Source: a virus. From it: 64,000 nucleotides of DNA. The notes under the pieces were generated by a model. It worked only from the letters and a program-made list of their open reading frames with translations. It was not told the origin of the DNA and ran no database searches. The DNA lies in the IMG/VR virus record IMGVR_UViG_3300044736_000016, positions 45,769-109,768 of that record; one strand, 5' to 3'. Shown in pieces: positions 10,625-60,974 of this stretch (positions are counted from its first letter, which is position 1; each line of letters opens with the position of its first letter). Both the position numbers and the translations under genes were made by a program.

Positions 10625-10921
10625 TCACGGCAGCCACCCGGTCAGCCAGAGCCACTGACGGCGACGGCGGGATGGACGCGGACGTAGCAGCATGATGAGC
10701 CCCATCGCCTCCCACGTCCTGCCCATCTCTGCGACCACCTCGGAGGCGTGGCCGGTCTGCTCCACGGGGATACGCAAACTCGCCCTGTCCGCATCCAGCA
10801 TGAGTAGCGACGGGAACCCGCGCGTAGCCTCTGCGACGGCCCGCATGCGCTCGACTGCATCGCCAGACGTGATGACCCATGCGTCCGGATGTGGCAGGCG
10901 GAATCGGTCGTCCGTGGTCAT
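10625..10921 (-). CDS. Hypothetical protein
   Basis: ATGA-coupled to the upstream gene. Confidence 0.5.
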   Translation of the reverse strand: MTTDDRFRLPHPDAWVITSGDAVERMRAVAEATRGFPSLLMLDADRASLRIPVEQTGHASEVVAEMGRTWEAMGLIMLLRPRPSRRRRQWLWLTGWLP

Positions 10922-11247
10922 CTTTGGGACTCCGTCTTGGTGCGCTTACGGCGCGGCTTGCGGGGTGGTGGCAGATAATCTAACGCGACGTCCAGCGCCA
11001 CCTTCGCTGCGATGAGGTCATCCCGCGCGAGTGCTGTCCGTGCGTCGATGGCGGCTCGTGCAGTATCAACCAGCCAATCGCATGCTTCCTTGTCCACCTC
11101 ATACTCGGAGGAACCGGCCACGAACTCCTCTGCCACTGCCAGCCGCTCCTCTGCCGTGGTGGCAGAGTCAAAGGTACGCGGGGTGTATTCGACGTCAAGC
11201 GCTCCGGCCTCGTCACCCATATCCGAACTCGGTGCGGGATCGATCAT
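10918..11247 (-). CDS. Hypothetical protein
   Basis: Likely start MIDPAPS, overlapping the stop of 11244..11453. Confidence 0.45.
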   Translation of the reverse strand: MIDPAPSSDMGDEAGALDVEYTPRTFDSATTAEERLAVAEEFVAGSSEYEVDKEACDWLVDTARAAIDARTALARDDLIAAKVALDVALDYLPPPRKPRRKRTKTESQR

Positions 11248-11717
11248 CTGTATCCCCCTATCCTCAGCCAGCGGGCGAGGGTGAGTAGCCACGGACAGCG
11301 GCGGGCGGGGTTCGCGCACAAGACGAGTTCCTCGAAGGGCTCGTCTGGCCCGAGTTCGCGTCGCCGGGATGGGTCCCACGGTTTGCCGTCGTCTGTGCGC
11401 ACCTCGCCAAGCATGTTGCCTTCAAGGTCATACAAGTACTCGGGCTCATCCATGGCAGTGCGACCTCAGCGGAGAGGTATCGCCACAGATCAGCCACGTT
11501 GCTGCGCCAGCGTAGATGATGAATCCACCGATCACCTGCAAGAGCGGTGAGGAGGAGACCGTCCAGACAACGAGCGTCGACAGGATCGGTGCCAGCACTA
11601 CCAACAGGAAGCGGAGCCTCTCGGTGTGGTGTTCTTGCGAGTCGATGAGTAGATCCACGGCTGCGATCCTCTCCTCGATGGTGAAGTCGCGTATTGGTTC
11701 GGGATGCTCTGTCTCGC

Positions 11718-12119
11718 TCACGGCGTGAACCTCCGTACGCTCTCGCTGGCAGCCTTGCGTCGAGCGTGTGCCCATGCTATCGGAGTACCGTCAGGCAGGT
11801 GGCAGGGACGTCCCATCTCGGACCCACAGTGCGGGCAGGCTACGTCTCTCGGCGGCCCGCGGTAGAGCGGGTTGCGGCACACGTCGTCGGTGGTACTGAC
11901 CAGCCAGCCGCATCCCTGCCGCCCACAACGCACGTAGCAGCCGCAGGAGCCCATACCCTGTGCGCCGCAGGGCTCAGGACGTGCCGGCAGCAGGATGGTC
12001 AGCGATCCTGTCGTCGTGGTATCTTGGTCTGGGCTGCGGTGAGGGTGATGCCCCGGGCGGGACTGACGAGTTGCGCGAAGGGTGGGCGTTCCGATCCGCA
12101 GCCCATCAGTCGTGCTCAC
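11718..12119 (-). CDS. Zinc-finger protein (CPxC...GxPC...HxxR phage DNA-binding type)
   Basis: ACPHCGSEMGRPCH...AHARR. Confidence 0.55.
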   Translation of the reverse strand: MSTTDGLRIGTPTLRATRQSRPGHHPHRSPDQDTTTTGSLTILLPARPEPCGAQGMGSCGCYVRCGRQGCGWLVSTTDDVCRNPLYRGPPRDVACPHCGSEMGRPCHLPDGTPIAWAHARRKAASESVRRFTP

Positions 12120-12545
12120 TCTGGGCCGAGCTCCGTCAGCGCATCCCACATCTCCCGGCCGGCTGAGCACCATGCCTTGGGCTCCACGTTCCCGCTGTAG
12201 AGTAGTGTGGCTTCGGCGGCGGCACACTTCGGACACTCAGCGCAGTGTGCCGAGATAGCCTCATAGACGAGTTCGCGAACCATGGTGGTAGGGACGATCT
12301 CGCCCTTATTTATCTTGCTCATGGCAGCAACGCCTTGGCTTCTCTTAGGAGACGCTGTGCCTGAGAGATGATGCGACGTACCTCGGCACGTTCCTTCCTG
12401 CCGTGGGTCGACATAGCGCAGGCGTCGATGAGGAGATCCTTCGCCTCCCACACCTTGTCGTATGCCATGCGCTCTACGGTGACAATCGGCGCGACGGCCA
12501 CGTCGCAGGGCCTGTATTCGCCCATGTCGGGGTCTCCGTGTCCTC

Positions 12546-12932
12546 TCATATCGCATCTCCGTGTGTCGGTGCTGGGTGGTTCTCATGCCGAGGATCGCTG
12601 GGAGGGAGTACGCACCATCCGGGCATGCAGTCGGCGTGAGGGCGCTCTGCTCCGAATGCGCACAGCGGTGCGGGCGCGGCGTACCTGATCTCGGCAAGCC
12701 GAACGTTGGCGCGATCCATGGTGGCAAGGCGGGCAGGCGTCTCGTCCTCGCGGTAGCAGTTCACGTCCCAGCGGCTAGCCCAGAACTTTCCGCCAAAGCC
12801 TAGCGAGCCGCAGAAGCGGAACTCATCGCCAGACGCCCCCGTGTCGAACCACTGCGCGAAGTAGTCACGACTCGCTTCTCGGGCCGCGCACTCCTCAACG
12901 AGAACATCATAGATGCGGTTGGCGGCGCTCAT
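12546..12932 (-). CDS. Conserved phage hypothetical protein
   Basis: EFRFCGSLGFGGKFW...V.CY.EDETP motif. Confidence 0.6.
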   Translation of the reverse strand: MSAANRIYDVLVEECAAREASRDYFAQWFDTGASGDEFRFCGSLGFGGKFWASRWDVNCYREDETPARLATMDRANVRLAEIRYAAPAPLCAFGAERPHADCMPGWCVLPPSDPRHENHPAPTHGDAI

Positions 12933-13141
12933 GCTGGGTCTCCTTGGTGGTTGCGCCGATGTGCTGCCTTCCGGCACGTCGCCGAGCAGAAACGCTTTGT
13001 GCTCCGCTCCCCTGCCATCGGCTGACGGCACTGCTCGCAGACTTGGACGAGGTTGAGCGCGTCGAGGTCGATCGCCAACTCCGCGACGAGGTGGGAGCCG
13101 TCTATCCGCAGGCTGGTGACCTTCACGGAAAGCTCGGTCAC
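12929..13141 (-). CDS. Small zinc-finger protein (CxxC...RFCSxxC)
   Basis: CEQC...KRFCSATCRKAAHR. Confidence 0.55.
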   Translation of the reverse strand: MTELSVKVTSLRIDGSHLVAELAIDLDALNLVQVCEQCRQPMAGERSTKRFCSATCRKAAHRRNHQGDPA

Positions 13142-13458
13142 GACTGCGGATGCGAGCAGGGACGGATTGCGCCGACACTCCATCCCTGACCATCTTCACA
13201 CTCGATGACAAGCCAGCAGCACCGACAACTCCGACAGATGTAGCCAGCAGCACTGAGCAACGAGAAGCGGGATGACCCCGAGACTTCGCCGACCCAAGCC
13301 TGTCCGGGTGTGTGGCCAGCGCGTCGCATCCTGCCCATGAGTGCTGCACGGGCTGCATCAATGGACGAGGCGTGGGTCACGGTCTCAGGCTGAGCCGCGT
13401 AGGGTCGGCTGCCCTCAGTCCGCAGGGAGGTGATCCGCGCTCCGGTGAGGTCAGTCAT
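13138..13458 (-). CDS. Hypothetical protein, paralog of 13694..13972
   Basis: QPETVTHASSIDAARAALMGRMRRAGH shared motif. Confidence 0.55.
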   Translation of the reverse strand: MTDLTGARITSLRTEGSRPYAAQPETVTHASSIDAARAALMGRMRRAGHTPGQAWVGEVSGSSRFSLLSAAGYICRSCRCCWLVIECEDGQGWSVGAIRPCSHPQS

Positions 13459-13693
13459 TCGGTTCCTCCGTTGTCATCTGCGCCGCACTGAAAGCAACGA
13501 CGCCCGCGAGATGCTGACGGTGAAAGCCGCACGATGCGGGCACTGCTGCGCCAACCGGATGCCTCCCACTCTGCCCAAAGTTCATAAAGCTTCTGCTGGC
13601 ACGGGCCGCAGTGGATGATGCCAACAGGCTTGGAGCGGCCTGACGTGTACTCCCATTGCTGGTACCAACGGGATGGGTCTGCTGTGAGGTCGG

Positions 13694-13972
13694 TCATCGC
13701 GCGTCGCCTGTGCAAATCGTGATGGCATCGACGAGCCATCCATGGCCCATATCGCCGTACTCGATAACCATCGAACTACTACGGCAGCGTGCGCAAACAT
13801 ACCTTGCACCTCGCCATGGAAGAGAGGTGGGTGACACGCCCGCCCATTCTAGTTGCGGTACGTGGCCAGCGCGGCGCATCCGCCGCATGATGGTCGCGCG
13901 TGCAGCATCCATCGACGAAGCTAGGGTTATCGTCTCGGGCTGAACTGCTGGGGACTGCGCCGACTGTTCCAT
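13694..13972 (-). CDS. Hypothetical protein, paralog of 13138..13458
   Basis: QPETITLASSMDAARATIMRRMRRAGH; leaderless start after TATGCT. Confidence 0.55.
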   Translation of the reverse strand: MEQSAQSPAVQPETITLASSMDAARATIMRRMRRAGHVPQLEWAGVSPTSLPWRGARYVCARCRSSSMVIEYGDMGHGWLVDAITICTGDAR

Positions 13973-13989
13973 GCCAAGAGCATACCACG

Positions 13990-14355
13990 CTATTCGCCGT
14001 AGCGTGGCAACCCATCACGGCAATCTGCGTCAGGCGTCGCCAGACTGGATACTGCCCAGGGCGTAGGCGACGGGCTCTGGCTGGGCGGCGCTGAGGGACG
14101 TGGCTGCCGCTGTGCGTGGGGTTGGGCGGGGTGCTGGCCTCCGGGGCGGTACGGGGCGCTCGTAGCACGCTGGCGTGACCGTCCGCCGTTCGGTGCGGGT
14201 CGGCTGCTCGAGGATGGCGAACCTGTCCCGCCTCCGTGTCCTGCCGGCGACTCCGAGCAGGGCGGGGTGCAGGCTCGGGCCAGCTGCGTCGCCGTGGTGG
14301 GGATCAGGACGGCAGCGACGGTAGCGAGAGCCACCAAGCCGCGACGTGCGTGCAT
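13990..14355 (-). CDS. Putative secreted Pro/Ser-rich protein
   Basis: GGAGG RBS; MHARRGLVALATVAAVLIP...ARA signal-peptide-like N-terminus. Confidence 0.5.
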   Translation of the reverse strand: MHARRGLVALATVAAVLIPTTATQLARACTPPCSESPAGHGGGTGSPSSSSRPAPNGGRSRQRATSAPYRPGGQHPAQPHAQRQPRPSAPPSQSPSPTPWAVSSLATPDADCRDGLPRYGE

Positions 14356-14369
14356 GTCGGTCGCCTCCG

Positions 14370-15100
14370 TGCGTGGGTGTGACGCACGTATGACGATCCA
14401 CGGCGCGCGAATCCTGCCCGCGAACTCACGCGGCGCGGCGAAATTGGCACACGTAGGCTTTACGGTGTCCCCTCTACCTCGCGCGTGGTCTTGCTTCGGT
14501 TCTCTGGGGTTGGCCCGTGGTCCACAGCCCGTGCCGTGGTTGTTGCTACGCCCGTCCCCCACCCTGCCATCACCGGATCCAGCAGCGGAGTATCTGTCGC
14601 CCCCCCTATATCCCCCACACGGAAGATACAGAGAGGACGACATGCAGCATCACCGTCACCGTTGCGTGATCACTGCTACCGGGTTCCCTTGACCTTGCGG
14701 CCACCGCCTCATTTCACTCAGCGGCTTACCCGGATCGACGCGCCGCCTGCAACGGCCGTCGGCATGGGCTCGTTCAAGCCAACGTGTTTATGTGGCCCGC
14801 GCCTTCCTTACCCTGCATCCCGCATCCCCCGAGTAGCCGGTGGGCGGACCCTGGCCGGGAACTAGATGGGGCGGCGCTGCTGGGTGTGCGCGTCGTCGTG
14901 GCCGTAGCCACGGACCGAGGCTGGGCCTACCGGGTACCCATGGGGTCTCCGACGCGGTACGATGAGCCCGCGAGGCAGCGGCTTGGACGGTCTCATCTCC
15001 GTCCCCTCAGTGCTAGCTGAGGCGCTGGGAGTATTGTTACTCACGCAGGCCGCGCCTCGCAACCACCCGCCCCACGATGCCGTGGTATCTGAATGCCGCT
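14370..15100 (-). ncRNA. Candidate large structured non-coding RNA or long 5' leader
   Basis: No credible CDS; 22-bp hairpin with 6 G-U pairs on - strand; GCAA and cUACGg tetraloops on - strand; dense further stems. Confidence 0.5.
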
Positions 15101-15371
15101 GACCGTTCTACTCCGCGCTAGGTAGCAGAACCGCAGCCGTCTTGGCCAGCACCGCGGCCCGTCCACGGCTCATCGCAGGCCGAGCACGGCGGATGTGGCG
15201 CAGTACCGCTCCCGCATCCCCGACGAACACGCGGCAGCCCTCCAGCGTCACCACGTACCCACGTGCCCTTATCCCCGCCAGCGTCCTAGCCTGACTGCGG
15301 CTCATCGCAGCCGTGGGCGGCCCGCTTCTCTCCTTGGTCCCCAGTATCCAAGGGATACGGCTGGAGCCAAC

Positions 15372-15704
15372 CTACGGGGCTGCGGCGTCCACGGCTGCGA
15401 CGGCCTTCGCCAGCAGCTCACGAGTGTGCGTCCCGGCAGGCGTGCCGTAGGTGAGATCGGCGCGGGCGGCGAGCAGGACCGCCTCTAGGAGTGCCATCCG
15501 TTCTGCATCTGGCCATGGTCGGACGTACTCAGCGAGTCGGTCGTCGTCTAGCCATGCCCACTCAGCAACGAGGTTGATGTCGATCTCATGGTCGTGCATC
15601 CACGGCTCATCGATGCCCTTCTCCTCGGGCAGACTATGGTCGATCGCCTTGCCGCTGTACGCCGCGCGCACCGCCACCGCATCCCCATCCTTGTACTCGC
15701 TCAT
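15372..15704 (-). CDS. Hypothetical protein
   Basis: Coupled ORF with normal composition. Confidence 0.55.
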   Translation of the reverse strand: MSEYKDGDAVAVRAAYSGKAIDHSLPEEKGIDEPWMHDHEIDINLVAEWAWLDDDRLAEYVRPWPDAERMALLEAVLLAARADLTYGTPAGTHTRELLAKAVAAVDAAAP

Positions 15705-15901
15705 GGCTGGGGATGGTAGCGCGGATCGATCTCAGCCTTGCGTCGCCGTAGGTCCATGATTCCGCATGCCTTGGAGCAGAACAGAGCGTCAGAGCGCTTC
15801 GGCAGGAACCACACTCCGCAGCGAGGGTTGTGGCACTGCGTGAGGCCGTCTGGTAGGGCTCGGACGGTGACGCGAGGCCCAGTCTTGCGTGCCGCGGTCA
15901 C
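15701..15901 (-). CDS. Small zinc-finger protein
   Basis: CHNPRC...FCSKAC. Confidence 0.55.
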   Translation of the reverse strand: MTAARKTGPRVTVRALPDGLTQCHNPRCGVWFLPKRSDALFCSKACGIMDLRRRKAEIDPRYHPQP

Positions 15902-16884
15902 CGGGTGGGCGCAGTGTGCAGGCGGTAGTCGTGCTCTACACGGCCGATCTGTGCGTCGCCACGGGCATGCTGCGGTACCCAGAACTTGCCCTCGTGCCGC
16001 CCGAACAGGAGGCCACGCCCGTACTTGGGACCGTAGTGGTGGAAGGAGCCTCGGACGCTGGTGAGTGGTACGCCCCCGCCTTGGCCACCTACACCTCCGC
16101 GAGTTGATCGGCCAACGGGGAACACGTTGAGCGTCTTCACGGTCACACCCATAGCGGCCAGTCGTCGCCGCTCAGGGCGAGGACGCTGGGGCTCTACAAG
16201 TTCTACATTGCGGCACGCGAGGAAGTTGAACGTTCCGAGCAGAACGAGAAGCGCCTCGTCCCATGCGTAGTCGTGGTCGTGGATGATGTCGATAGAGCGG
16301 ATGTCCGCTGGGCTGCCGTCCTCATAAATATCGATCTGCCATGAGTGCAGCGGTCCTACAGTCGTGGCCAAGCCGCCCTGGCCCCTACCCCCGACCCACA
16401 TGAAGGCTAAGACGCGCCAAAACACATCGTCTTCCCTGACGACGTGGACCGGCTGGTTGTGGGGGATCGGCTTTCCAATATCATCCCAGGAATTCCCCAG
16501 CAGTTCGTCACGTTGAGTAGAGACGAGGTGGAGGACGAATACCGTGCCATATTCGTTGACAAAGCACACGGCTGCCTCGCGCCAGGGTTGAGCGATGCAC
16601 GGGTGGTCCTCGTAGACAGCCACTGGGCGAGCAGATGTTTTGAGCGATTCGTAGATCGCCGTAGCGTCGACCACGACTGGATCTTCAACTAGCTCAAGCG
16701 CTCGCTCCGTCACTTTGGCTCCTGCGGCCTGCTGCGGCGTGCTCGCTGTGGCCGGGCAGGGGTTGCCTGCGCGGTGCCTGCGGAGATCGCTTATGACCTT
16801 AGCGATGGGCTCTGCGGTCATCGGACAGTACTCATGCGAGCATGATACCGAAACCGAGTTGAGATCGGCAACATGGCTCGGCAT
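15898..16884 (-). CDS. Conserved phage hypothetical protein (lower GC; start uncertain)
   Basis: C-terminal VRG.F.HY...W.P.H.RG...G.V..DY motif. Confidence 0.55.
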   Translation of the reverse strand: MPSHVADLNSVSVSCSHEYCPMTAEPIAKVISDLRRHRAGNPCPATASTPQQAAGAKVTERALELVEDPVVVDATAIYESLKTSARPVAVYEDHPCIAQPWREAAVCFVNEYGTVFVLHLVSTQRDELLGNSWDDIGKPIPHNQPVHVVREDDVFWRVLAFMWVGGRGQGGLATTVGPLHSWQIDIYEDGSPADIRSIDIIHDHDYAWDEALLVLLGTFNFLACRNVELVEPQRPRPERRRLAAMGVTVKTLNVFPVGRSTRGGVGGQGGGVPLTSVRGSFHHYGPKYGRGLLFGRHEGKFWVPQHARGDAQIGRVEHDYRLHTAPTR

Positions 16885-16921
16885 GGTAGCGCCAGCCTCG
16901 GCCTGACGCAGCGGGTAGGCG

Positions 16922-16953
16922 CGGGCAAACCCACAGGCACGGCGATCCTGCGC
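16922..16953 (+). promoter_or_regulatory. Putative late promoter motif CGGGCAA-N15-GATCCTGCGC
   Basis: Same motif and spacing at 26040-26071; both directly precede a GTG start. Confidence 0.5.
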
Positions 16954-16955
16954 CC

Positions 16956-18662
16956 GTGGCGACCGATACCAAGACCACCGAGTCCGACGCCCAAGCTGTC
17001 GAACATTCGCATCCCAAGGCGGGCGGCGGGAAGTACACACACTCCCACGCCATCACGGGCACGAAGGCCCACGGGCACGCCGTAGACGCGAAGGACAACG
17101 GCTCCACGACCGAACTCCTGCCCACGGTCGCTGCGATGAGCGAGACCTCGCCCGGGGTGATGGCACTGCGGTTCCCCCAGCAGGCAAGGCTCTCTGAGGG
17201 GGCGCCGATCGACTACCTGTGCACTGGGGAGTGGACGTTCCCCGAGTTGAACCGCGGCAATCCGATCTGTGTGACCCGCGACGATCTCACCGATGTCAAG
17301 CGGCTGTGGGACGAGAACGCCTACGGGCAGAACCTGCCGATCATCGATGAGAACCACGATCCGAACCGCGCAGTGGGGTGGATCAAGCGCCTCGACTGGC
17401 ATCCCTCTGACCCCGACAGGCTGGTGGCGGTCCCTGACTGGAACGAGGGATGCGACAAACTCGTCGCTTCTGGCGCGTACGGGTACACATCACCGCTTCT
17501 GCTCCTGAACTGGCGCGACCCAGTGTCCGGCACGGTGTATCCCGTCGTCCCCGGCGGCCTCGGCCTGGATCCCAACGACCCCGAGGGCGATACGTCCGGG
17601 CTGGCCTTGGCGAACCACCCGAAAATCAAGAAGCTCAGTGCCAAGTTTGCGGCATCCGAGAGCGGTGATACGCAGGCTGCGCTGATTGCGTTCGGCGAGG
17701 CAGGCACGGTGTTCAGCGGCGTTGCGGCAGACACTGCCCGCGCACTGCTGGCTGAGGGTGACGGCGCACCGATCGACTTCGCTGCGGCCGACACCTCTGC
17801 GGACATGACCGATCTGCCGCCGTGCAGTTGGGCGCCGCCCTATGCGGAGTACAACCGCTGTCCGGGCTATACGCGGGTGCTCGCAGATGGTGACGGCGAT
17901 GCTCCAGGCGATCTGCCCGGATGCTGCCGTCTGGCGGCGCAGTGCAATGGCTACTCCCCGGTCCCAAACGGGACTGTTCCACCGTATCAGCGCTCCTACT
18001 ACAGCGAGGGACACAGCATGGCCGACAACCCGGCCCAGCCGGCCGGAGTGCCGGCCGCCAATCCGTCTCCGGTACCCAACGCGCCGCAGACCGCCCCGCC
18101 CGCGGCCCCGCAGCCACCGCCAGCACCACCGCCCCCTGCTCCCACCCCTGCCGCGCAGCACTCCGCGGACATGGGAGAGATGCAGCGCATGCTCGCTGCG
18201 GAGACCCACCAGCGCGAGACGATGCAGACCGAGGTCGCACGGCTCGGCGAGGAGCTGAGGCGGCGCGATGAGGACGACAAGATCCGCAGTGTGACGGTTC
18301 GGCTGTCAGAGCTCGCGAAGCGTTTTCCCCCCGCCGTCCTGGACAGTCTCGCCGGAGCCGCAAAGAACGGCGTGCGCGACCGCACCCGCCTGCTCAGGCT
18401 GAGCGAGCATCCGGTAGGGATCGAAGCGCTCGAGGCCATCCCGCAGGTGAAGGGTGGCGCGGTGTCGCTGAGCGAGATCGGCACTGGCGCAGAGGCTGAC
18501 CCGGAGACCTCCTACTCGCGGCTGCGGAAGTTCGCCGAGGAGCTGCGCGCGGCAGACCCGAAGCTCACCCGCGAGCAGGCGATGCTCAAGGCGAGCGAGG
18601 ACCACCCTGACCTCGTCGCTGCGTACCGCGCCGAGAAGTATGTGCCCGGCGCGGCTGGCTGA
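16956..18662 (+). CDS. Capsid maturation protease/scaffold (Mu gpI-like)
   Basis: LPIIDENH...AVGWI..L; W...V....YGYTSP; LALANHP; C-terminal helical scaffold. Confidence 0.82.
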   Translation: MATDTKTTESDAQAVEHSHPKAGGGKYTHSHAITGTKAHGHAVDAKDNGSTTELLPTVAAMSETSPGVMALRFPQQARLSEGAPIDYLCTGEWTFPELNRGNPICVTRDDLTDVKRLWDENAYGQNLPIIDENHDPNRAVGWIKRLDWHPSDPDRLVAVPDWNEGCDKLVASGAYGYTSPLLLLNWRDPVSGTVYPVVPGGLGLDPNDPEGDTSGLALANHPKIKKLSAKFAASESGDTQAALIAFGEAGTVFSGVAADTARALLAEGDGAPIDFAAADTSADMTDLPPCSWAPPYAEYNRCPGYTRVLADGDGDAPGDLPGCCRLAAQCNGYSPVPNGTVPPYQRSYYSEGHSMADNPAQPAGVPAANPSPVPNAPQTAPPAAPQPPPAPPPPAPTPAAQHSADMGEMQRMLAAETHQRETMQTEVARLGEELRRRDEDDKIRSVTVRLSELAKRFPPAVLDSLAGAAKNGVRDRTRLLRLSEHPVGIEALEAIPQVKGGAVSLSEIGTGAEADPETSYSRLRKFAEELRAADPKLTREQAMLKASEDHPDLVAAYRAEKYVPGAAG

Positions 18663-20969: not shown

Positions 20970-21380
20970 GTGAACGTCGAAGTCGGCAAGAAGCTGCGCC
21001 TGCGGGAGCACGTCGGATACATGCCAGAGATCAACCCGCACCACGACTATGAGAAGTATCTCGACCGGCACTATCCGCTGTTCGCCGGGCAAGAGGCCGA
21101 GGTGGTGGGACTGAGCCCCGCAGGCGAGCATGGCGCCGGGCCGCACGACCAGGACACCGTGGTGCTGCGTTTGGAGCACCGGCAACTCGTCGTGACACCG
21201 CCAACTCCGGCCGCAACTGCGCACGCAGCCGGACCGCCCGGACCGCTGCCCGAGGAGCATCAGGTGTTCCACCCGACCGACCCTGACCATGAGCCCACAG
21301 ATCCGCCGACGGTGCGTCACTGGTCGTGCACGCTGGAGCAGCTTGACGAACTGTTCGAGCCCATCGACGGGGAGGGCTAG
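20970..21380 (+). CDS. Hypothetical protein
   Basis: RBS plus GTGA-coupled start. Confidence 0.55.
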   Translation: MNVEVGKKLRLREHVGYMPEINPHHDYEKYLDRHYPLFAGQEAEVVGLSPAGEHGAGPHDQDTVVLRLEHRQLVVTPPTPAATAHAAGPPGPLPEEHQVFHPTDPDHEPTDPPTVRHWSCTLEQLDELFEPIDGEG

Positions 21381-22313: not shown

Positions 22314-25271
22314 GTGGCGGCCCCAGTCCTCGTTCAGCACGTCGGCGGCACGGCGGTCAGCGGCACGTCGGCGATCTACACGGTCTCGGCCACGGGTGCT
22401 GCCGCCGGCACGGGGCTCGCCATCGTCATCGGCTGGCGCATCACCGCCGCCGCCAGCCAGACCATCACCTCGATCACGGACAACAAAGGCAACACGTGGG
22501 CGGTAGAGGACCGCGACAACGACGCGACGTCCACGCAGAAGGCCGATATCTGGTCGGTCAACCCCAGCGCCTACATCAGCGGCGTCACGACCATCACGGT
22601 CAACTTCAGTATCGCTGCCAGCTCGAACTTCGACTTCTACGAACTCTCCGGCGGCGACATGGGCGGCGCGTGGGCCGATACGGGCGGCGCCAACCACGCC
22701 AGTAGTACGGCACCCACGGTCACCTCTGGAACGCTCGCGGGTGCTACGGAATACGCCGTCGCAGGCATCGCATGGGCGTCGAGCGCCAACACCATCTCAG
22801 GTCTCACCGCCGGCTGGACGACGGAGACGCTACAGACCACGGCAGGCGCGCCGAACCAGCGACTCCAGTCCGCGCACCAGACCACGGCCGCCACCACAGC
22901 GCTGACCTACGCGGGAACGCTCTCGGCATCCACGCGCTGGGCTGCCGTCGTCTGTCCGTTCAAAGGCAGTTCTGGCTCGGCGCTTCCCGTGACCGCAACT
23001 GGGTCGTCGGCCGCATCCGGTTCGGCAGCGGCGGTCCTCGTTATGCCGGTGGCGGGAACGGGAGTGTCCGCGAGTTCCGGGGCGGCAGCGCCCAATCTGC
23101 TGATGCCTGCGGCGGCGTCTGGCGCATCCGTGAGCAGCGGGAGCGCGGCGTCAGTCCTGACCATGCCCGTCAGCGCAAGCGGGTCAGCGACTTCTGCGGG
23201 GACCGCGACACCCACGGCCACCTACGTCGTCACGGCTGCGGGCGCGTCGGCTGCGTCGGGGAGCGCGACTGCACGTCTCACGATGCCGGTGTCAGCAAGC
23301 GGCGCGTCGGTGGTGAGCGGCACGGCTGCGATCACGTCCGGCCAGCCACCGGCCCAGGTGCAGAACGTCGTACGCGTCAGCACCGTCAACAACGAGACGA
23401 CGACGGGCAGCATCAGCGTCACGTCGACCAACGCCGGGAATCTGCTGCTCATCAGCGTGGTGTTCAACTCGCTCACCTCTGGCCAGAGCGTCACCGCGGT
23501 GTTCGACAACGCGGGCCAGACGTGGAACAACGTCGTTGACATCACGTCCGGCACGATGAGTTGCGGGATCTGGGCCGCGACGAACTGCCTCGCCGGGACG
23601 ACGACCGTACAGGTCAACTACTCCGCGGGAGTCGCCGATATCGTCCGGTTTCAGGAGGTCTCGGGAGTACTGGCGAGTTCTCCGCTCGACGTGGTGGCCA
23701 GCAACAACGGGACGAGCACAACGCCGAACACCGGCACGACGACAACCACTGCGCAGGGGTCGGAGTGGGTCGCAGCGGTCTACGGGTTCACGTACACCGG
23801 CAGTATCCCATCGGAGAGCGGGTTCCCGTCAGGGTTCATCGAGGACACGGTCCAGCACACAGCGTTCGGGGCCGGGACGCAACTTGCAGAGCGTCACGGG
23901 TACGAAGCTGCGTCCGCAACCGGCACGTTCAACTTCTCCTCCACGCTCAGCACGTCGTCGCCGTGGATCGGCAGCATCGCGACATTCAAGGGCGCGGCGG
24001 CTGGCGGGCCTCTACCTGTTACAGCGTCGGGGGCGTCCATCTCGAGCGGCGCGGCATCCGTCGTACTGACCCTGCCTGCGACGACAGTCGGCGCATCGTC
24101 TGCCGCAGGTACCGCTGCTGTCGGAGTGGTCGCAAGGATCTCCGCTGCGGGTTCGTCCACGGCCGCGGGATCGGCGAACGCAGCCATCGCCATGCCAGTC
24201 ACGGGCGTCGGGTCCGCGAACGCGAGCGGTGTTGCGTCGGCAGTGCTGGTCATGCCTGCGTCCACGGTTGGCGCCTCCACGGCGAGCGGAACTGCGACAG
24301 CTGTGGCAACTCTCGCAGCAAGTACGTCTGGTGGTGCGGTTAGCGTCGGGTCCGCCATCGCGGCGATCTCCACGCCAGTCTCGGGCGTGGGCACCTCGGT
24401 AGCATCCGGGGCGGCAACGATCCGCCTGTCCATGCTGGTGTCCGGTGTCGGGGCGTCATCAGCCAGCGGCAGCGCGTCCTTGGTCGTGCTCGAGGCGGTA
24501 TCAGCGGGCGGGGCGTCTGCAACAGCAGGGTCGGCATCGGTCGTCTTGCTTATGCCTATCTCCGCGGCAGGGGCGAGCGCTGCGGCGGGGTCGGCGCTGG
24601 TGTCGTCGGGATCTATCTCTGCCGGTGGCGCGGCCGTATCGTCGGGCTCTGCAGTGGTGGCGCTGCGGCTCGTGCTGGCCGCGCCTGGAGCCTCTACGGC
24701 GGCTGGGAGCGCCACCGTCGCGATGCTCATGCCTGCGTCCGCTGTGGGGGCGTCCTCTGCTGTAGGGACGGTGTCTGCGGGCCTCGCGCTGCCGGTGGTC
24801 GTGCTCGGCTCGGCGTCCGCGGCCGGTGCGGCCAGCGTGGTCGTACTGCTGGCTGTCTCGGGGGCAGGCGCAGCGGTGTCTGGCGGCACGGCCGCGGCCG
24901 TTCTACTCCTGCCGGTGACCGGCATGGGTTCGGCGGTCGCATCTGGCACGGCCACGGCCCGCACCGTGCTGGTGGTCTCCGCTGGTGGTGCGGCGACAGC
25001 GTTCGGGGTGGCCTCGGTCGTGCTGCCGCTGCCCCTGTCGAGCGTGGGCGCCTCGCTGGCCACCGGCGCCGTCGCACTCGCCATCCTGCTGCCGCTGAGT
25101 GCCGCTGGTACGTCTCAGGCGTCCGGTTCCGCGGCCGTGCTCATCCTCATGTCGGCCAGCGGCGCGTCGGTCAGTGTAGGCTCGGCGACCGTGGTTCTCA
25201 TCCTGCGCATCCCGTATCTGGTCGTCTACGGGACGGCTAGGACACCTGTGGCGGTCGGATCAGCGTCCTAA
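22314..25271 (+). CDS. Large virion appendage protein: two beta-rich domains plus 20-aa repeats
   Basis: Repeats such as MPVSASGASVVSGTAAxxLx; duplicated S(I/V)T...DN.G.TW domain. Confidence 0.7.
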   Translation: MAAPVLVQHVGGTAVSGTSAIYTVSATGAAAGTGLAIVIGWRITAAASQTITSITDNKGNTWAVEDRDNDATSTQKADIWSVNPSAYISGVTTITVNFSIAASSNFDFYELSGGDMGGAWADTGGANHASSTAPTVTSGTLAGATEYAVAGIAWASSANTISGLTAGWTTETLQTTAGAPNQRLQSAHQTTAATTALTYAGTLSASTRWAAVVCPFKGSSGSALPVTATGSSAASGSAAAVLVMPVAGTGVSASSGAAAPNLLMPAAASGASVSSGSAASVLTMPVSASGSATSAGTATPTATYVVTAAGASAASGSATARLTMPVSASGASVVSGTAAITSGQPPAQVQNVVRVSTVNNETTTGSISVTSTNAGNLLLISVVFNSLTSGQSVTAVFDNAGQTWNNVVDITSGTMSCGIWAATNCLAGTTTVQVNYSAGVADIVRFQEVSGVLASSPLDVVASNNGTSTTPNTGTTTTTAQGSEWVAAVYGFTYTGSIPSESGFPSGFIEDTVQHTAFGAGTQLAERHGYEAASATGTFNFSSTLSTSSPWIGSIATFKGAAAGGPLPVTASGASISSGAASVVLTLPATTVGASSAAGTAAVGVVARISAAGSSTAAGSANAAIAMPVTGVGSANASGVASAVLVMPASTVGASTASGTATAVATLAASTSGGAVSVGSAIAAISTPVSGVGTSVASGAATIRLSMLVSGVGASSASGSASLVVLEAVSAGGASATAGSASVVLLMPISAAGASAAAGSALVSSGSISAGGAAVSSGSAVVALRLVLAAPGASTAAGSATVAMLMPASAVGASSAVGTVSAGLALPVVVLGSASAAGAASVVVLLAVSGAGAAVSGGTAAAVLLLPVTGMGSAVASGTATARTVLVVSAGGAATAFGVASVVLPLPLSSVGASLATGAVALAILLPLSAAGTSQASGSAAVLILMSASGASVSVGSATVVLILRIPYLVVYGTARTPVAVGSAS

Positions 25272-27329: not shown

Positions 27330-30300
27330 GTGATCACTCTCGCCGCTACCAACACAATTCAGGGTAGCGCGGGAACCACGACGGCGGTCACCTACACAAT
27401 CACCGGCATGACGCTGTCGAGCGCGCAGGCAGAGACGTACGCAGTCCTATCTCAGGGCCAGCTCGCCACATCCGCGGCAGCGATCTACACCGTGCCCGCG
27501 AGCACGTCGGCGCTCGTCAAGGAGATCCTGCTCGCCAACGTCACGGCCGCAGCCGTATCGGTCAAGCTCTACATCAACGGCACCACGGCGGCGAACCAGA
27601 TCACCTCGCTCAACATCCCTGCCAACGGCGAGGCGAAGTTCGATCACACGGGCTGGGCGGTGTACGACGGCAACGGTAGCCTGCAAGTCACGCCTGTCTA
27701 CATCACTGCGGCGGCGGGGTCGGTCCCGGAGGCGTCGGTCGCCAACCTCGGCATGGACCTGACCGTGCTGACCGCGGCCATCGCAGACAACGGCGTGGAT
27801 TCGGGCTGCGCCGTGACGTGGGTGTCAGGCCTGAACGTTGCCATCGCCACAGGCATCGTGCGCATCGGCGGTGGACGGTACAACATCGCAGCCGTCGCCT
27901 CGCAGGCGCTGAACACCGCCGACCCGAACTACGCGCGCTGGGACATGATCACCGCGAACACCTCGTCCGCCGTGGTCTACACAGCAGGCACCGCTGCGGC
28001 GTATCCGGTGGTCCCGGCCATCCCCGCGAACTCCGTCGTGCTGGCGATCATCCCCGTCTACGCTGGCAACAACCCGGCGCTGTCGGGCGCAGCCATCGTG
28101 GACAAGCGCATCATTCTGCCGACCACGAACCTGAACCTGCCGCCAGTGTTCGACCCGAGCGGTGGTTTGAAGACGTGGCGTGCCGCGGTGGCGAACAAGG
28201 AAAACAAGCCCGCGGACATCCTGTTCATCGGCGACAGCATCCACGAGGGCTACTACAGCAGCGACGATGCGCACCGGTACGCCTCGCTCGTCAGACGCAG
28301 GCTACAGAACTACTACAACCCGACGCACATTCCCGGAGGCGAGGGCTTCATACCCGGCACGCATGTGCAGGGTTCCGGCGCAGGCAACGGGTACATCGCG
28401 CTCGCGCAGCGGTGGACGGTCGTCGGACCAAGCCTACCTCCGACCGATCTGGGTTACGGGTTGGGGCGGCGGTCTGTTCCGCTCACCGCCGCAACGCACA
28501 CTGCGACCATCGGCGGACTGCTCGCGGACCGGTTCTGGATCTACTACACGGCCACCACGACGTCAGGCTGGATCGGCATCGCTATCGACGGCAAGCTGAC
28601 CACGGTGGCAACGCAGGGCGTTCTGTCCGGCACCGGCACGGGCACGTTCACGACGACGCTCGCGACAGGATGGCCGGGTGGCACGTTCACACTCACGGTG
28701 GACGACGAGGACATGACCGTCACGGCGAACGGCGCCACCATCACGATCACGGCACGAGGAGCGAACGCCACCACCGCAGTCACGCATGCCGTGGGCGCGA
28801 CTGCGCAGTGGGCTCCTGCGGGCGTGAAGCGCGCCAACACCCTCGGCGCCGCGATCAAGGGCGGTCGCATGTGGGATTCAGGCGCGCTGACCCGCGGTAT
28901 CCACTCAGTGACCGTCGTGCCGATCAACCGTGCCGGTGGCGGGTCGACCTACAACGTCAACCTCGACGGCGTCATGGTGTTCGACGGCGACGGTGGGCCG
29001 GGACCGGGCACGTTCACTGACGGCGTGCTCGTCGGCACGACCACCACAGGCGTCCAGACGCTCCCCATATCGACCATCAACGTCACATCCACGACGAACT
29101 TCCCTGCGTCCGGCCAGGTGAACATCGTGACCTCGTCGGGCGCGCAGACCGTCACCTACGCGGGCGTCACCGCCAACACGCTGACCGGATGCTCGAACGG
29201 CGTCGGCAACACCTCGGCTGGCGGGGCCGTCACATCCCAGACATTCCAGAGCGCCACGGCAGCCTTCACCGCGGCCGACGTCGGGCAGTACATCTACGCG
29301 GTCGGCATCCCCGTGCACACGACGATCACCGCCGTTGTGAGCGCGACGCAGATCACGCTGTTGCAGCCAGGGACTGCCACCAGCTCGGGAATCACCTTCG
29401 AGATCAACGGCAGATCCGCAGGAGTGCGCATGTGGGATGGCGCGCACTCGACCATGACATCTGCGGGCATGGCTGGTCCGGCGGGGGCGATCAACGGTTG
29501 GTGGGCTGACGCGCTCGACACCGTGGACCCTGACCTTGTGGTGATCGAGTTCGGCATCGTGGACTTGATTTTGTCCGTGACGGGTGCGACCTACTACGCG
29601 AACCTCACGTCGATGGTCAGCCTCATCAAGTCGAAGTGCCCCGGCAACCCGTCCATCTGCTTCTTCGTCGCGTGGCAGCCCGGAGATTACACGGCAGCGC
29701 AGTGGGGCGTGTTTACCAACGCGATGTACCTCGTCGCCCAGCAGCAGGGCTGCGCGGTGTTCGACTTCTCGCTCAGGGTCTCTGCGGCAGCGGCATCAGG
29801 TGCCGGTGCGGTGATGTTCACCGACACCATCCACCCGAACGATGCTGGTGCGCAGGACATTGCGCTCGAGTTCACCAAGTACCTCGTCGGGCACGAACTC
29901 GTGCAGCCGATCAAGAGTCCGTGGTTCGGGGACGGTTCGGACGGCGCGGTGGTGTTCGACGGCACGACGACCATCCTCGGCATGGCCCCAGCGTCGAGCG
30001 TCTACACCCTGACGCGCGATCTGTTCCTGACCAACATGACCGTGAACAACGGCGTGACGATCAAGACGGCATCGTTCCGCATCTACGGTACCGGCACCTT
30101 GATGACGCCGATACAGGCTGTCGCGTCCACGGGGATCATCGACTGTTCTGGCGGAAACGCAGCAGGACAGACTGCTGGGGCGGCAACCGCGAACCAGTCT
30201 CTGTCGGGTAGCGTCGGCGGCGGGGCTGGAGGCGCGATCGGTGGGGCGGGTGTGGCGGGTGGCACTCTCACCGCAGCGGGGACAGGACCGCTCATGGGAG

Positions 30301-51171: not shown

Positions 51172-51203
51172 GACCCCGGCGTCATCGGTACGGCGCCGGG
51201 GTC
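51172..51203. terminator. 12-bp GC hairpin between the convergent late and early arms
   Basis: gaccccggcgtc-N8-ggcgccggggtc. Confidence 0.65.
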
Positions 51204-60839: not shown

Positions 60840-60974
60840 CCTCGGGTCGGAGTCGCCAGCCTGGAGACTGCGGCTAGACGTGGAGAGAGCCCGCCAGACG
60901 TTCTGACGGGCTCCCAGCCTGCCGCAGATCGACAAGCCCAGCAGACGAAGCGTCACGTATCCTACCGCGTCAGG

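Follow-up and report, generated by a model that had tools for sequence, protein, structure and literature searches.

Large structured RNAs of the GOLLD and ROOL families, which measure 500–800 nt, are found in phage context within long gene-free stretches, and these two features are shared by the locus in the soil phage described here. The phage is represented by an IMG/VR record of 109,768 bp with direct terminal repeats and 65% GC, of which bases 45769–109768 were analyzed as the window (64,000 nt; coordinates refer to the window unless given as genome positions). Within a minus-strand gene island (approximately 10918–17040) that is surrounded by plus-strand structural genes, about 750 bases (15107–14356) with a GC content of 68% are free of genes. 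The original prediction for this stretch was a single structured RNA of about 700 nt, either a new large ncRNA or a long leader of the downstream gene for a secreted protein. The likeness to GOLLD and ROOL ends with the setting: neither these nor any other large RNA model of Rfam matches, the interior of the stretch is not conserved among close relatives, and the conserved structured part comprises only about 110 nt. The stretch is not one GOLLD/ROOL-like RNA of about 700 nt, and the proposed large RNA is not supported, whereas a conserved RNA at 15068–14959 and the assignment of the last ~180 nt to the upstream region of the secreted-protein gene can be retained. Judged by sequence comparison, the gene-free stretch is a mosaic of parts and not continuous. 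The parts and their neighbors are, in the direction of the minus strand:

15305–15108, minus strand: ORF of 65 aa, the gene upstream of the gap
15084–15097, minus strand: operator-like palindrome GGCATTCAGATACC, with one mismatch to the repeated motif GGCAT-N4-ATGCC
15074–15079, minus strand: −10-like hexamer CATCGT (TATCGT at other sites)
14959–15068, minus strand: four-way-junction RNA of about 110 nt (block A), recognized by 78% identity to the related locus L002, by RNAalifold and by the covariance model R1
15068–15049 with 14982–14959, minus strand: P1, the long closing helix of block A, about 20 bp
15042–15029, minus strand: hairpin P2 of block A (RNAalifold)
15022–15005, minus strand: hairpin P3 of block A (RNAalifold)
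15004–14985, minus strand: hairpin P4 of block A (RNAalifold)
14931–14945, minus strand: three-codon mini-ORF AUG GGU ACC CGG UAG behind GGAG, read from the sequence
14536–14940, minus strand: cargo of about 400 nt, with no credible ORF and no detectable relative in the related loci L002 and L005
14595–14642, minus strand: hairpin of 22 bp with loop GUGU and 6 G-U pairs, −35.7 kcal/mol, contained in the centroid as well as the MFE fold, 3'-terminal in the cargo
14356–14535, minus strand: block B of about 180 nt, aligned in the window, L002 and L005
14415–14410, minus strand: invariant AGGATT in block B
14398–14393, minus strand: −10-like GATCGT in block B, in CC-GTGG context
14368–14364, minus strand: Shine-Dalgarno sequence GGAGG in block B
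13990–14355, minus strand: gene for a protein of 121 aa that begins with a signal-like segment and ends in a proline-rich tail, downstream of the gap

The premise that 15107–14356 contains no credible gene was borne out when open frames of both strands were tested: none had a Pfam match or a credible relative in HMMER and word searches, and no conserved frame runs across this interval in the related phages. The longest open frame retrieved a single relative, P0006, from 5.8 billion proteins, and another one gave nothing but a spurious low-complexity match among 1.84 billion representatives. An ORF of at least 8 codons preceded by a Shine-Dalgarno sequence was not found on the minus strand of 14940–14560. 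Frames of 32–66 codons do exist on this strand, with an amino-acid composition that resembles out-of-frame high-GC sequence, and the GC frame plot is flat over the stretch. Codon-usage scoring of candidate ORFs was dropped as uninformative, since codon statistics fail to separate genes from non-genes in the island and a conserved gene of 271 aa also received a negative score. ARAGORN detected neither tRNA nor tmRNA in the window, and the cloverleaf of these molecules differs from block A by an acceptor stem much shorter than the ~20 bp of P1. With neither a conserved frame nor a credible homologue or a family to mark a protein-coding gene, the stretch is non-coding as far as testable.

All stems named in the original prediction proved to be real in the sense that they occur in the MFE fold of the minus strand and most of them also in the centroid fold. 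This includes the GNRA hairpin with its surrounding multiloop (14679–14733) and the cUACGg hairpin (14897–14912), which were present in both, and the stems at 14985–15004, 15005–15022 and 15029–15042, which are backed by compensatory changes. The suggested comparison of fold z-scores between the strands also came out as anticipated for the region 14370–15100 as a whole, with −348.1 kcal/mol and z = −3.0 for the minus strand versus −319.2 kcal/mol and z = −0.5 for the plus strand (20 shuffles each). The description of the entire stretch as dense in stems did not hold at higher resolution: only two 150-nt windows were exceptional, both of which contain the 22-bp hairpin (z = −3.2 and −3.0 on the minus strand versus about −0.2 on the plus strand, 60 shuffles), whereas the remaining 150-nt windows in 14375–15124 had z-scores from −1.4 to +1.3 on both strands (60 shuffles). 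A single hairpin therefore accounts for the folding signature of the minus strand over the whole region. No known RNA family was recognized: at gathering thresholds, cmscan of the whole window with Rfam gave no hits, and 14200–15400 remained without a hit at E ≤ 10. Rfam searches of the relatives' loci returned only chance matches to microRNA and snoRNA models, and blastn of the region against phage and plasmid collections gave no match. Besides the missing Rfam match, it is the replacement of the middle ~400 nt in L002 and L005 that argues against a single structured RNA of about 700 nt.

The comparison was made between the genome of the phage under study (G000) and three related contigs, namely G001, a single contig of 79 kb that holds L002, L004, L006 and L007, G003 with L005 and L010, and G002 with L003. 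The genes flanking the gap are mostly 82–98% identical to L002, whereas the gap itself contributes just two aligning blocks, A at 15067–14956 with 78% identity and B at 14417–14356, which together with the secreted-protein gene is 90% identical. Structure is likewise not conserved over the full length among the homologues, which keep only 15068–14959 and 14535–14356. In a three-way alignment, the segment that separates the blocks is common to L002 and L005 and absent from the window, and the Smith-Waterman score of 14940–14460 against both relatives lies within the range of shuffled sequences except at the 3' edge, where the similarity is accounted for by block B beginning near 14535. In place of the middle ~400 nt, both relatives carry a zinc-ribbon gene (L002 8980–9177, 65 aa; L005 652–891, 79 aa), the products of which are 51% identical and differ by an in-frame indel of 14 aa. 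Homologues of this gene, P0007 and P0008, have been called as genes in metagenomes. An upstream ORF of 10–12 codons precedes the zinc-ribbon gene in L002 and L005, and in L002 its stop codon overlaps the GTG start of the zinc-ribbon gene; the gene is followed, at the place equivalent to that of the 22-bp hairpin, by a hairpin with a U5 tail in L005 and by a long hairpin in L002. A decayed copy of the zinc-ribbon gene was sought in the window and gave no signal. The mini-ORF at 14931–14945 occupies the place of the relatives' upstream ORF.

Several further observations were made in these loci. The 14-codon in-frame deletion removes the second CxxC pair from the zinc-ribbon protein of L002. The 271-aa gene (12546–13361) is itself mosaic in comparison to L002/L004, with pieces of 95–99% identity between non-aligning stretches. 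Upstream of the gap, 95 nt at 15317–15411, which cover the end of a 110-aa gene and the spacer separating it from the 65-aa ORF, are 98% identical to L002, while the adjoining coding sequence is 78–86% identical. An inverted repeat of 15 nt (15305–15319 with 15386–15400) lies in a surrounding window with a fold z-score of −3.0 on the minus strand, and the similarity to L002 ends abruptly at 15317, so that this site resembles a mosaic joint that carries a conserved structured element. In the 65-aa ORF, the start context CTGCGATGAGCCG (minus strand) is duplicated 132 nt apart, at 15145–15178 and 15277–15310, which results in two in-frame ATG starts with the same surroundings.

Block A is a conserved structured RNA without a family in Rfam and hence a new motif. 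Its structure was derived from three sequences, from which the covariance model R1 was built, and base pairs were counted on the alignment fitted to R1. RNAalifold with the three sequences yielded P2, P3 and P4 at the positions of the three stems that had been noticed in the single sequence (15029–15042, 15005–15022 and 14985–15004, respectively). Compensatory changes were found in 12 of the 47 modelled pairs, compared to 4.3 ± 1.6 in column shuffles of the R1-fitted alignment, and 92.8% of the pair cells of the three sequences hold standard pairs, which fell to 36–48% when the partners were slid by 1–3 columns. P2, P3 and P4 are 100% paired in the three sequences with 2–3 compensatory pairs each, and one position in P2 is occupied by U-A, C-G and G-C in the three phages. 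Several G-U pairs of P1 are invariant or nearly so, which identifies the minus strand as the RNA strand. The covariation among homologues that had been named as a check for the whole region is thus present in block A with its 12 compensatory pairs; the cargo interior is not conserved in L002 and L005. The four-way-junction motif is rare, with three copies found, one each in G000, G001 and G003; it is absent from G002. Further copies were sought by pattern scans in IMG/VR, JGI metagenomes and GTDB genomes, which produced chance matches only, rejected with R1, and a protein-guided search for prophage relatives in GTDB genomes found none.

In L002 and L005, block A directly precedes the upstream ORF and the zinc-ribbon gene, and this position suggests that it most likely is a cis-acting leader, which might control what follows by binding a small ligand or a protein. 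Across the three sequences, compensatory structure on the sense strand upstream of a gene was found, as is typical of a cis-regulatory leader, and the assignment of this function relies on position and on analogy. Helix 6, a small hairpin that covers the Shine-Dalgarno sequence and the AUG, is 81% paired and has one covarying pair. A clear alternative pairing that could act as expression platform was not found in block A. We also considered whether block A might itself contain a promoter of the sigma-70 type (TTGCGA-N18-AACAAT), which was rejected, as its −35 element is the covarying 5' strand of P1 and its −10 element the loop of P2.

A candidate promoter was instead recognized immediately upstream in a genome-wide motif search. 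The minus strand of 15097–15074 reads GGCATTCAGATACC-acgg-CATCGT, and the genome positions 21084(−) and 28859(−) read GGCATTNNAATGCC-gtgg-TATCGT, with the same layout at 18238(+); at all four sites the operator and the hexamer are separated by 4 nt. At the three other sites, an ATG is located exactly 7 nt past the hexamer, as would be expected for leaderless mRNAs of actinobacteria, and the ORFs opened in this way measure 207 aa at 18238(+), 35 aa at 21084(−) and 67 aa at 28859(−). In the window's copy, each part of the motif contains one mismatch, and what follows is the structured RNA and not an ORF. Here, the +7 offset lands on 15066, the first G of GUGGUUGCG in the 5' strand of P1. The likeness to the three sites with an ATG at +7 leads us to predict the transcription start at 15066, and with this start the RNA would begin with the four-way junction. 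L002 and L005 do not conserve the operator motif in front of the leader.

The cargo contains the UACG hairpin and the GNRA multiloop, and apart from the 22-bp hairpin its fold z-scores are ordinary. It matched nothing in phage and plasmid collections and is not repeated within its own genome. The sole database hit is P0006, a called ORF on a JGI contig, which is 98% identical to one plus-strand frame of 14386–14571 and continues with 100% identity in a different frame over 14603–14692. As an opposite-strand ORF that changes frame relative to the window, P0006 is of interest less as a protein than as evidence that a near-identical relative carries at least the 14386–14692 end of the cargo region. 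On this contig the apex of the 22-bp hairpin is retained and a deletion of 31 nt at its base can be deduced; the deletion variant would refold via a similar downstream partner to 21 bp with one bulge. Because a deletion between similar repeats gives this 21-bp refold without selection, we do not count it as evidence of function. A 20-mer from the GNRA domain hit three contigs in IMG/VR, which were dismissed as chance matches of about 20 nt in unrelated sequence, and an exact 20-mer of the hairpin arm had no hits in IMG/VR. Within the window, 14631–14659 agrees with 23394–23422 on the same strand in 25 of 29 nt, a borderline similarity (E = 0.002) that may be due to chance. The latter segment is part of the gene for a repeat protein of 985 aa, to the mRNA of which a transcript of the gap's minus strand would run antisense.

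The 22-bp hairpin had been described exactly as it was found, with 22 pairs of which 6 are G-U. It is the longest uninterrupted hairpin of the whole genome on either strand, followed by one of 15 bp, and when the genome was shuffled 25 times with dinucleotides preserved, its longest hairpin measured 14.8 bp on average and 18 bp at most. On the minus strand, each of the six non-Watson-Crick pairs is G-U, where the plus strand would have A-C, and this strandedness, which had also been pointed out from the single sequence, points to the minus strand as the RNA. In this hairpin of exceptional length, the wobble pairs speak for selection at the RNA level. The hairpin is located about 60 nt before the homology with the relatives resumes, and it probably marks the 3' end of a transcript or a processing site. 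A canonical intrinsic terminator, consisting of a GC-rich hairpin and a U tract, is not present, as only 2 U occur in the next 10 nt and the terminator scan left the hairpin unflagged. The other gene-end hairpins of the phage likewise lack U tails. Among the gaps between ORFs, those at 51172–51203 and 60885–60915 hold GC-rich hairpins of 12–14 bp without U tails at or near the ends of genes, which are likely the ordinary terminators of this phage. The 22-bp hairpin, with its 6 G-U pairs and A-U-rich center, is longer and less GC-rich than these nearly all-G-C candidates, and without a U tract it may by itself fail to terminate transcription. In Streptomyces, the terminators identified by Term-seq have the longest stems and only 3–4 U (PMC12207403), and the hairpin described here is similar to such U-poor actinobacterial terminators in being long and stable, with few U and a position at the predicted end of a unit. 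With 22 uninterrupted pairs, the hairpin also reaches the length of RNase III substrates (~20 bp or more), and cleavage by this enzyme would be conceivable. Processing hairpins for RNase III are located between phage genes in the early mRNA of T7, in the lambda N leader and at sib. These hairpins of T7 and lambda similarly offer about two turns of uninterrupted double-stranded RNA between two expression units of a phage operon; the T7 sites differ in carrying internal loops that direct single cuts.

For the last ~180 nt, which are conserved in all three phages as an upstream region of the secreted-protein gene, the original idea of a regulatory leader of this gene is supported. This gene has 88% identity in L006, which belongs to the same contig as L002, and a homologue in L005, and its ATG and the Shine-Dalgarno sequence GGAGG are kept in the relatives. 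The likeness of the GATCGT hexamer and its surroundings to the CC-GTGG-TATCGT context of the operator-promoter sites suggests that block B contains the gene's own promoter followed by a leader of about 30 nt. The conserved stems close to the Shine-Dalgarno sequence show little covariation. An in-frame upstream extension of the secreted-protein gene to 217 aa was dismissed because the relatives have a 2-nt indel in the leader.

Taken together, we lean, with slightly more than even confidence, towards a composite minus-strand unit made up of a regulated promoter, a leader RNA, a swapped cargo that ends in a hairpin, and the region that controls the next gene. According to this model, the operator-plus-promoter copy at 15097–15074 would start transcription at about 15066, and the transcript would open with the ~110-nt four-way-junction RNA as cis-acting leader for whatever follows. 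In this phage, ~400 nt of unrelated sequence that lack a credible ORF would have taken the place of the zinc-ribbon gene. The unit would most likely end at the 22-bp hairpin, which could serve as a terminator lacking a U tract, a type common among high-GC actinobacteria, or as a double-stranded site for processing or stability. The final 180 nt (14535–14356) would comprise a conserved promoter and leader that belong to the secreted-protein gene. What is observed directly comprises the structures, the extent to which each is conserved, the borders of the mosaic, the copy of the promoter motif and the lack of a protein signal; from these we infer that the stretch is transcribed, as well as the start site, the 3' end and the roles of leader and hairpin. 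Among the points that count against the composite unit is that the leader has no evident target in this phage if the cargo is non-coding.

A first alternative is that the stretch encodes one functional, trans-acting ncRNA of about 470 nt (15066 to approximately 14590) or up to 700 nt, with the four-way junction at its 5' end and the hairpin as 3' clamp. A promoter copy at one end, a very strong hairpin at the other and no credible ORF in between would fit such an RNA, as would the minus-strand z-score of the whole region and the near-identical metagenome contig that shares at least 14386–14692. Since its interior is swapped for a protein gene in L002 and L005, folds no better than shuffled sequences once the hairpin is disregarded, and has no match in Rfam, we consider a single ncRNA unlikely. 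A more specific version, in which the four-way junction would be a new phage riboswitch or regulator-binding leader within a repressor-operator regulon and would head a hairpin-clamped trans-acting ncRNA of ~470 nt that would target, for example, host or phage transcripts, appears distinctly unlikely. Alternatively, the target of the leader could be one or several small proteins that were missed in the cargo because they start leaderless or without a Shine-Dalgarno sequence and that are regulated like the zinc-ribbon gene. The small gene in the equivalent slot of the relatives, the existence of minus-strand frames of suitable length and codon statistics that misjudge even the conserved 271-aa gene would allow for this, but no frame outside the leader has a Shine-Dalgarno sequence, the open frames tested have no credible homologue or family, and neither their composition nor the GC frame plot resembles that of genes, making missed proteins very unlikely.

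The opposite view treats the cargo as a scar of recombination or as decaying filler without function, so that only the leader and the control of the secreted-protein gene would matter and the hairpin would be a leftover. As at mosaic joints, the cargo lies between two conserved linker blocks and has no relative detectable in either L002 or L005; this, its ordinary z-scores and the 31-nt deletion deduced inside the cargo of a close relative are in line with decay. A 22-bp hairpin is far beyond chance, however, its six wobbles all favor the transcribed strand (a probability of about 1 in 64 for random transitions), and the deletion variant would still fold into a 21-bp hairpin, so that we regard mere filler as quite unlikely. 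Finally, a role at the DNA level, as a single- or double-strand replication origin, a packaging site or an attachment site, could be imagined for a long non-coding stretch in a window in which the first reading of the sequence recognized no replication initiator. Key pairings depend on G-U, which would be unstable as G-T in DNA, iterons and AT-rich stretches are missing at 68% GC, and the direct terminal repeats place the genome ends elsewhere. For the single-strand origin that had originally been put forward as an alternative, we found nothing in favor, and DNA elements of any of these kinds are extremely improbable.

The locus illustrates that an apparent large structured RNA can dissolve into a mosaic of small regulatory parts once relatives are compared. 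Neither the leader motif nor the hairpin alters the general view of phage biology, but a compact motif at the predicted start of a repeated operator-promoter set provides a handle on gene control in large uncultivated actinobacterial phages. Among known RNAs, block A is best compared with the four-way-junction leaders SAM-I, yybP-ykoY (Mn2+) and NiCo, with which it shares a long closing helix around three hairpins, a size of about 110 nt, conserved junction strands and covarying helices. Like riboswitch leaders, it would form the very beginning of a transcript, with a Shine-Dalgarno sequence and start codon following about 20 nt later. In contrast to SAM-I, yybP-ykoY and NiCo, block A has no sequence or structure match in Rfam even at E ≤ 10, its three members all reside in uncultivated phages, and the gene downstream of it in L002 and L005 encodes a zinc-ribbon protein.
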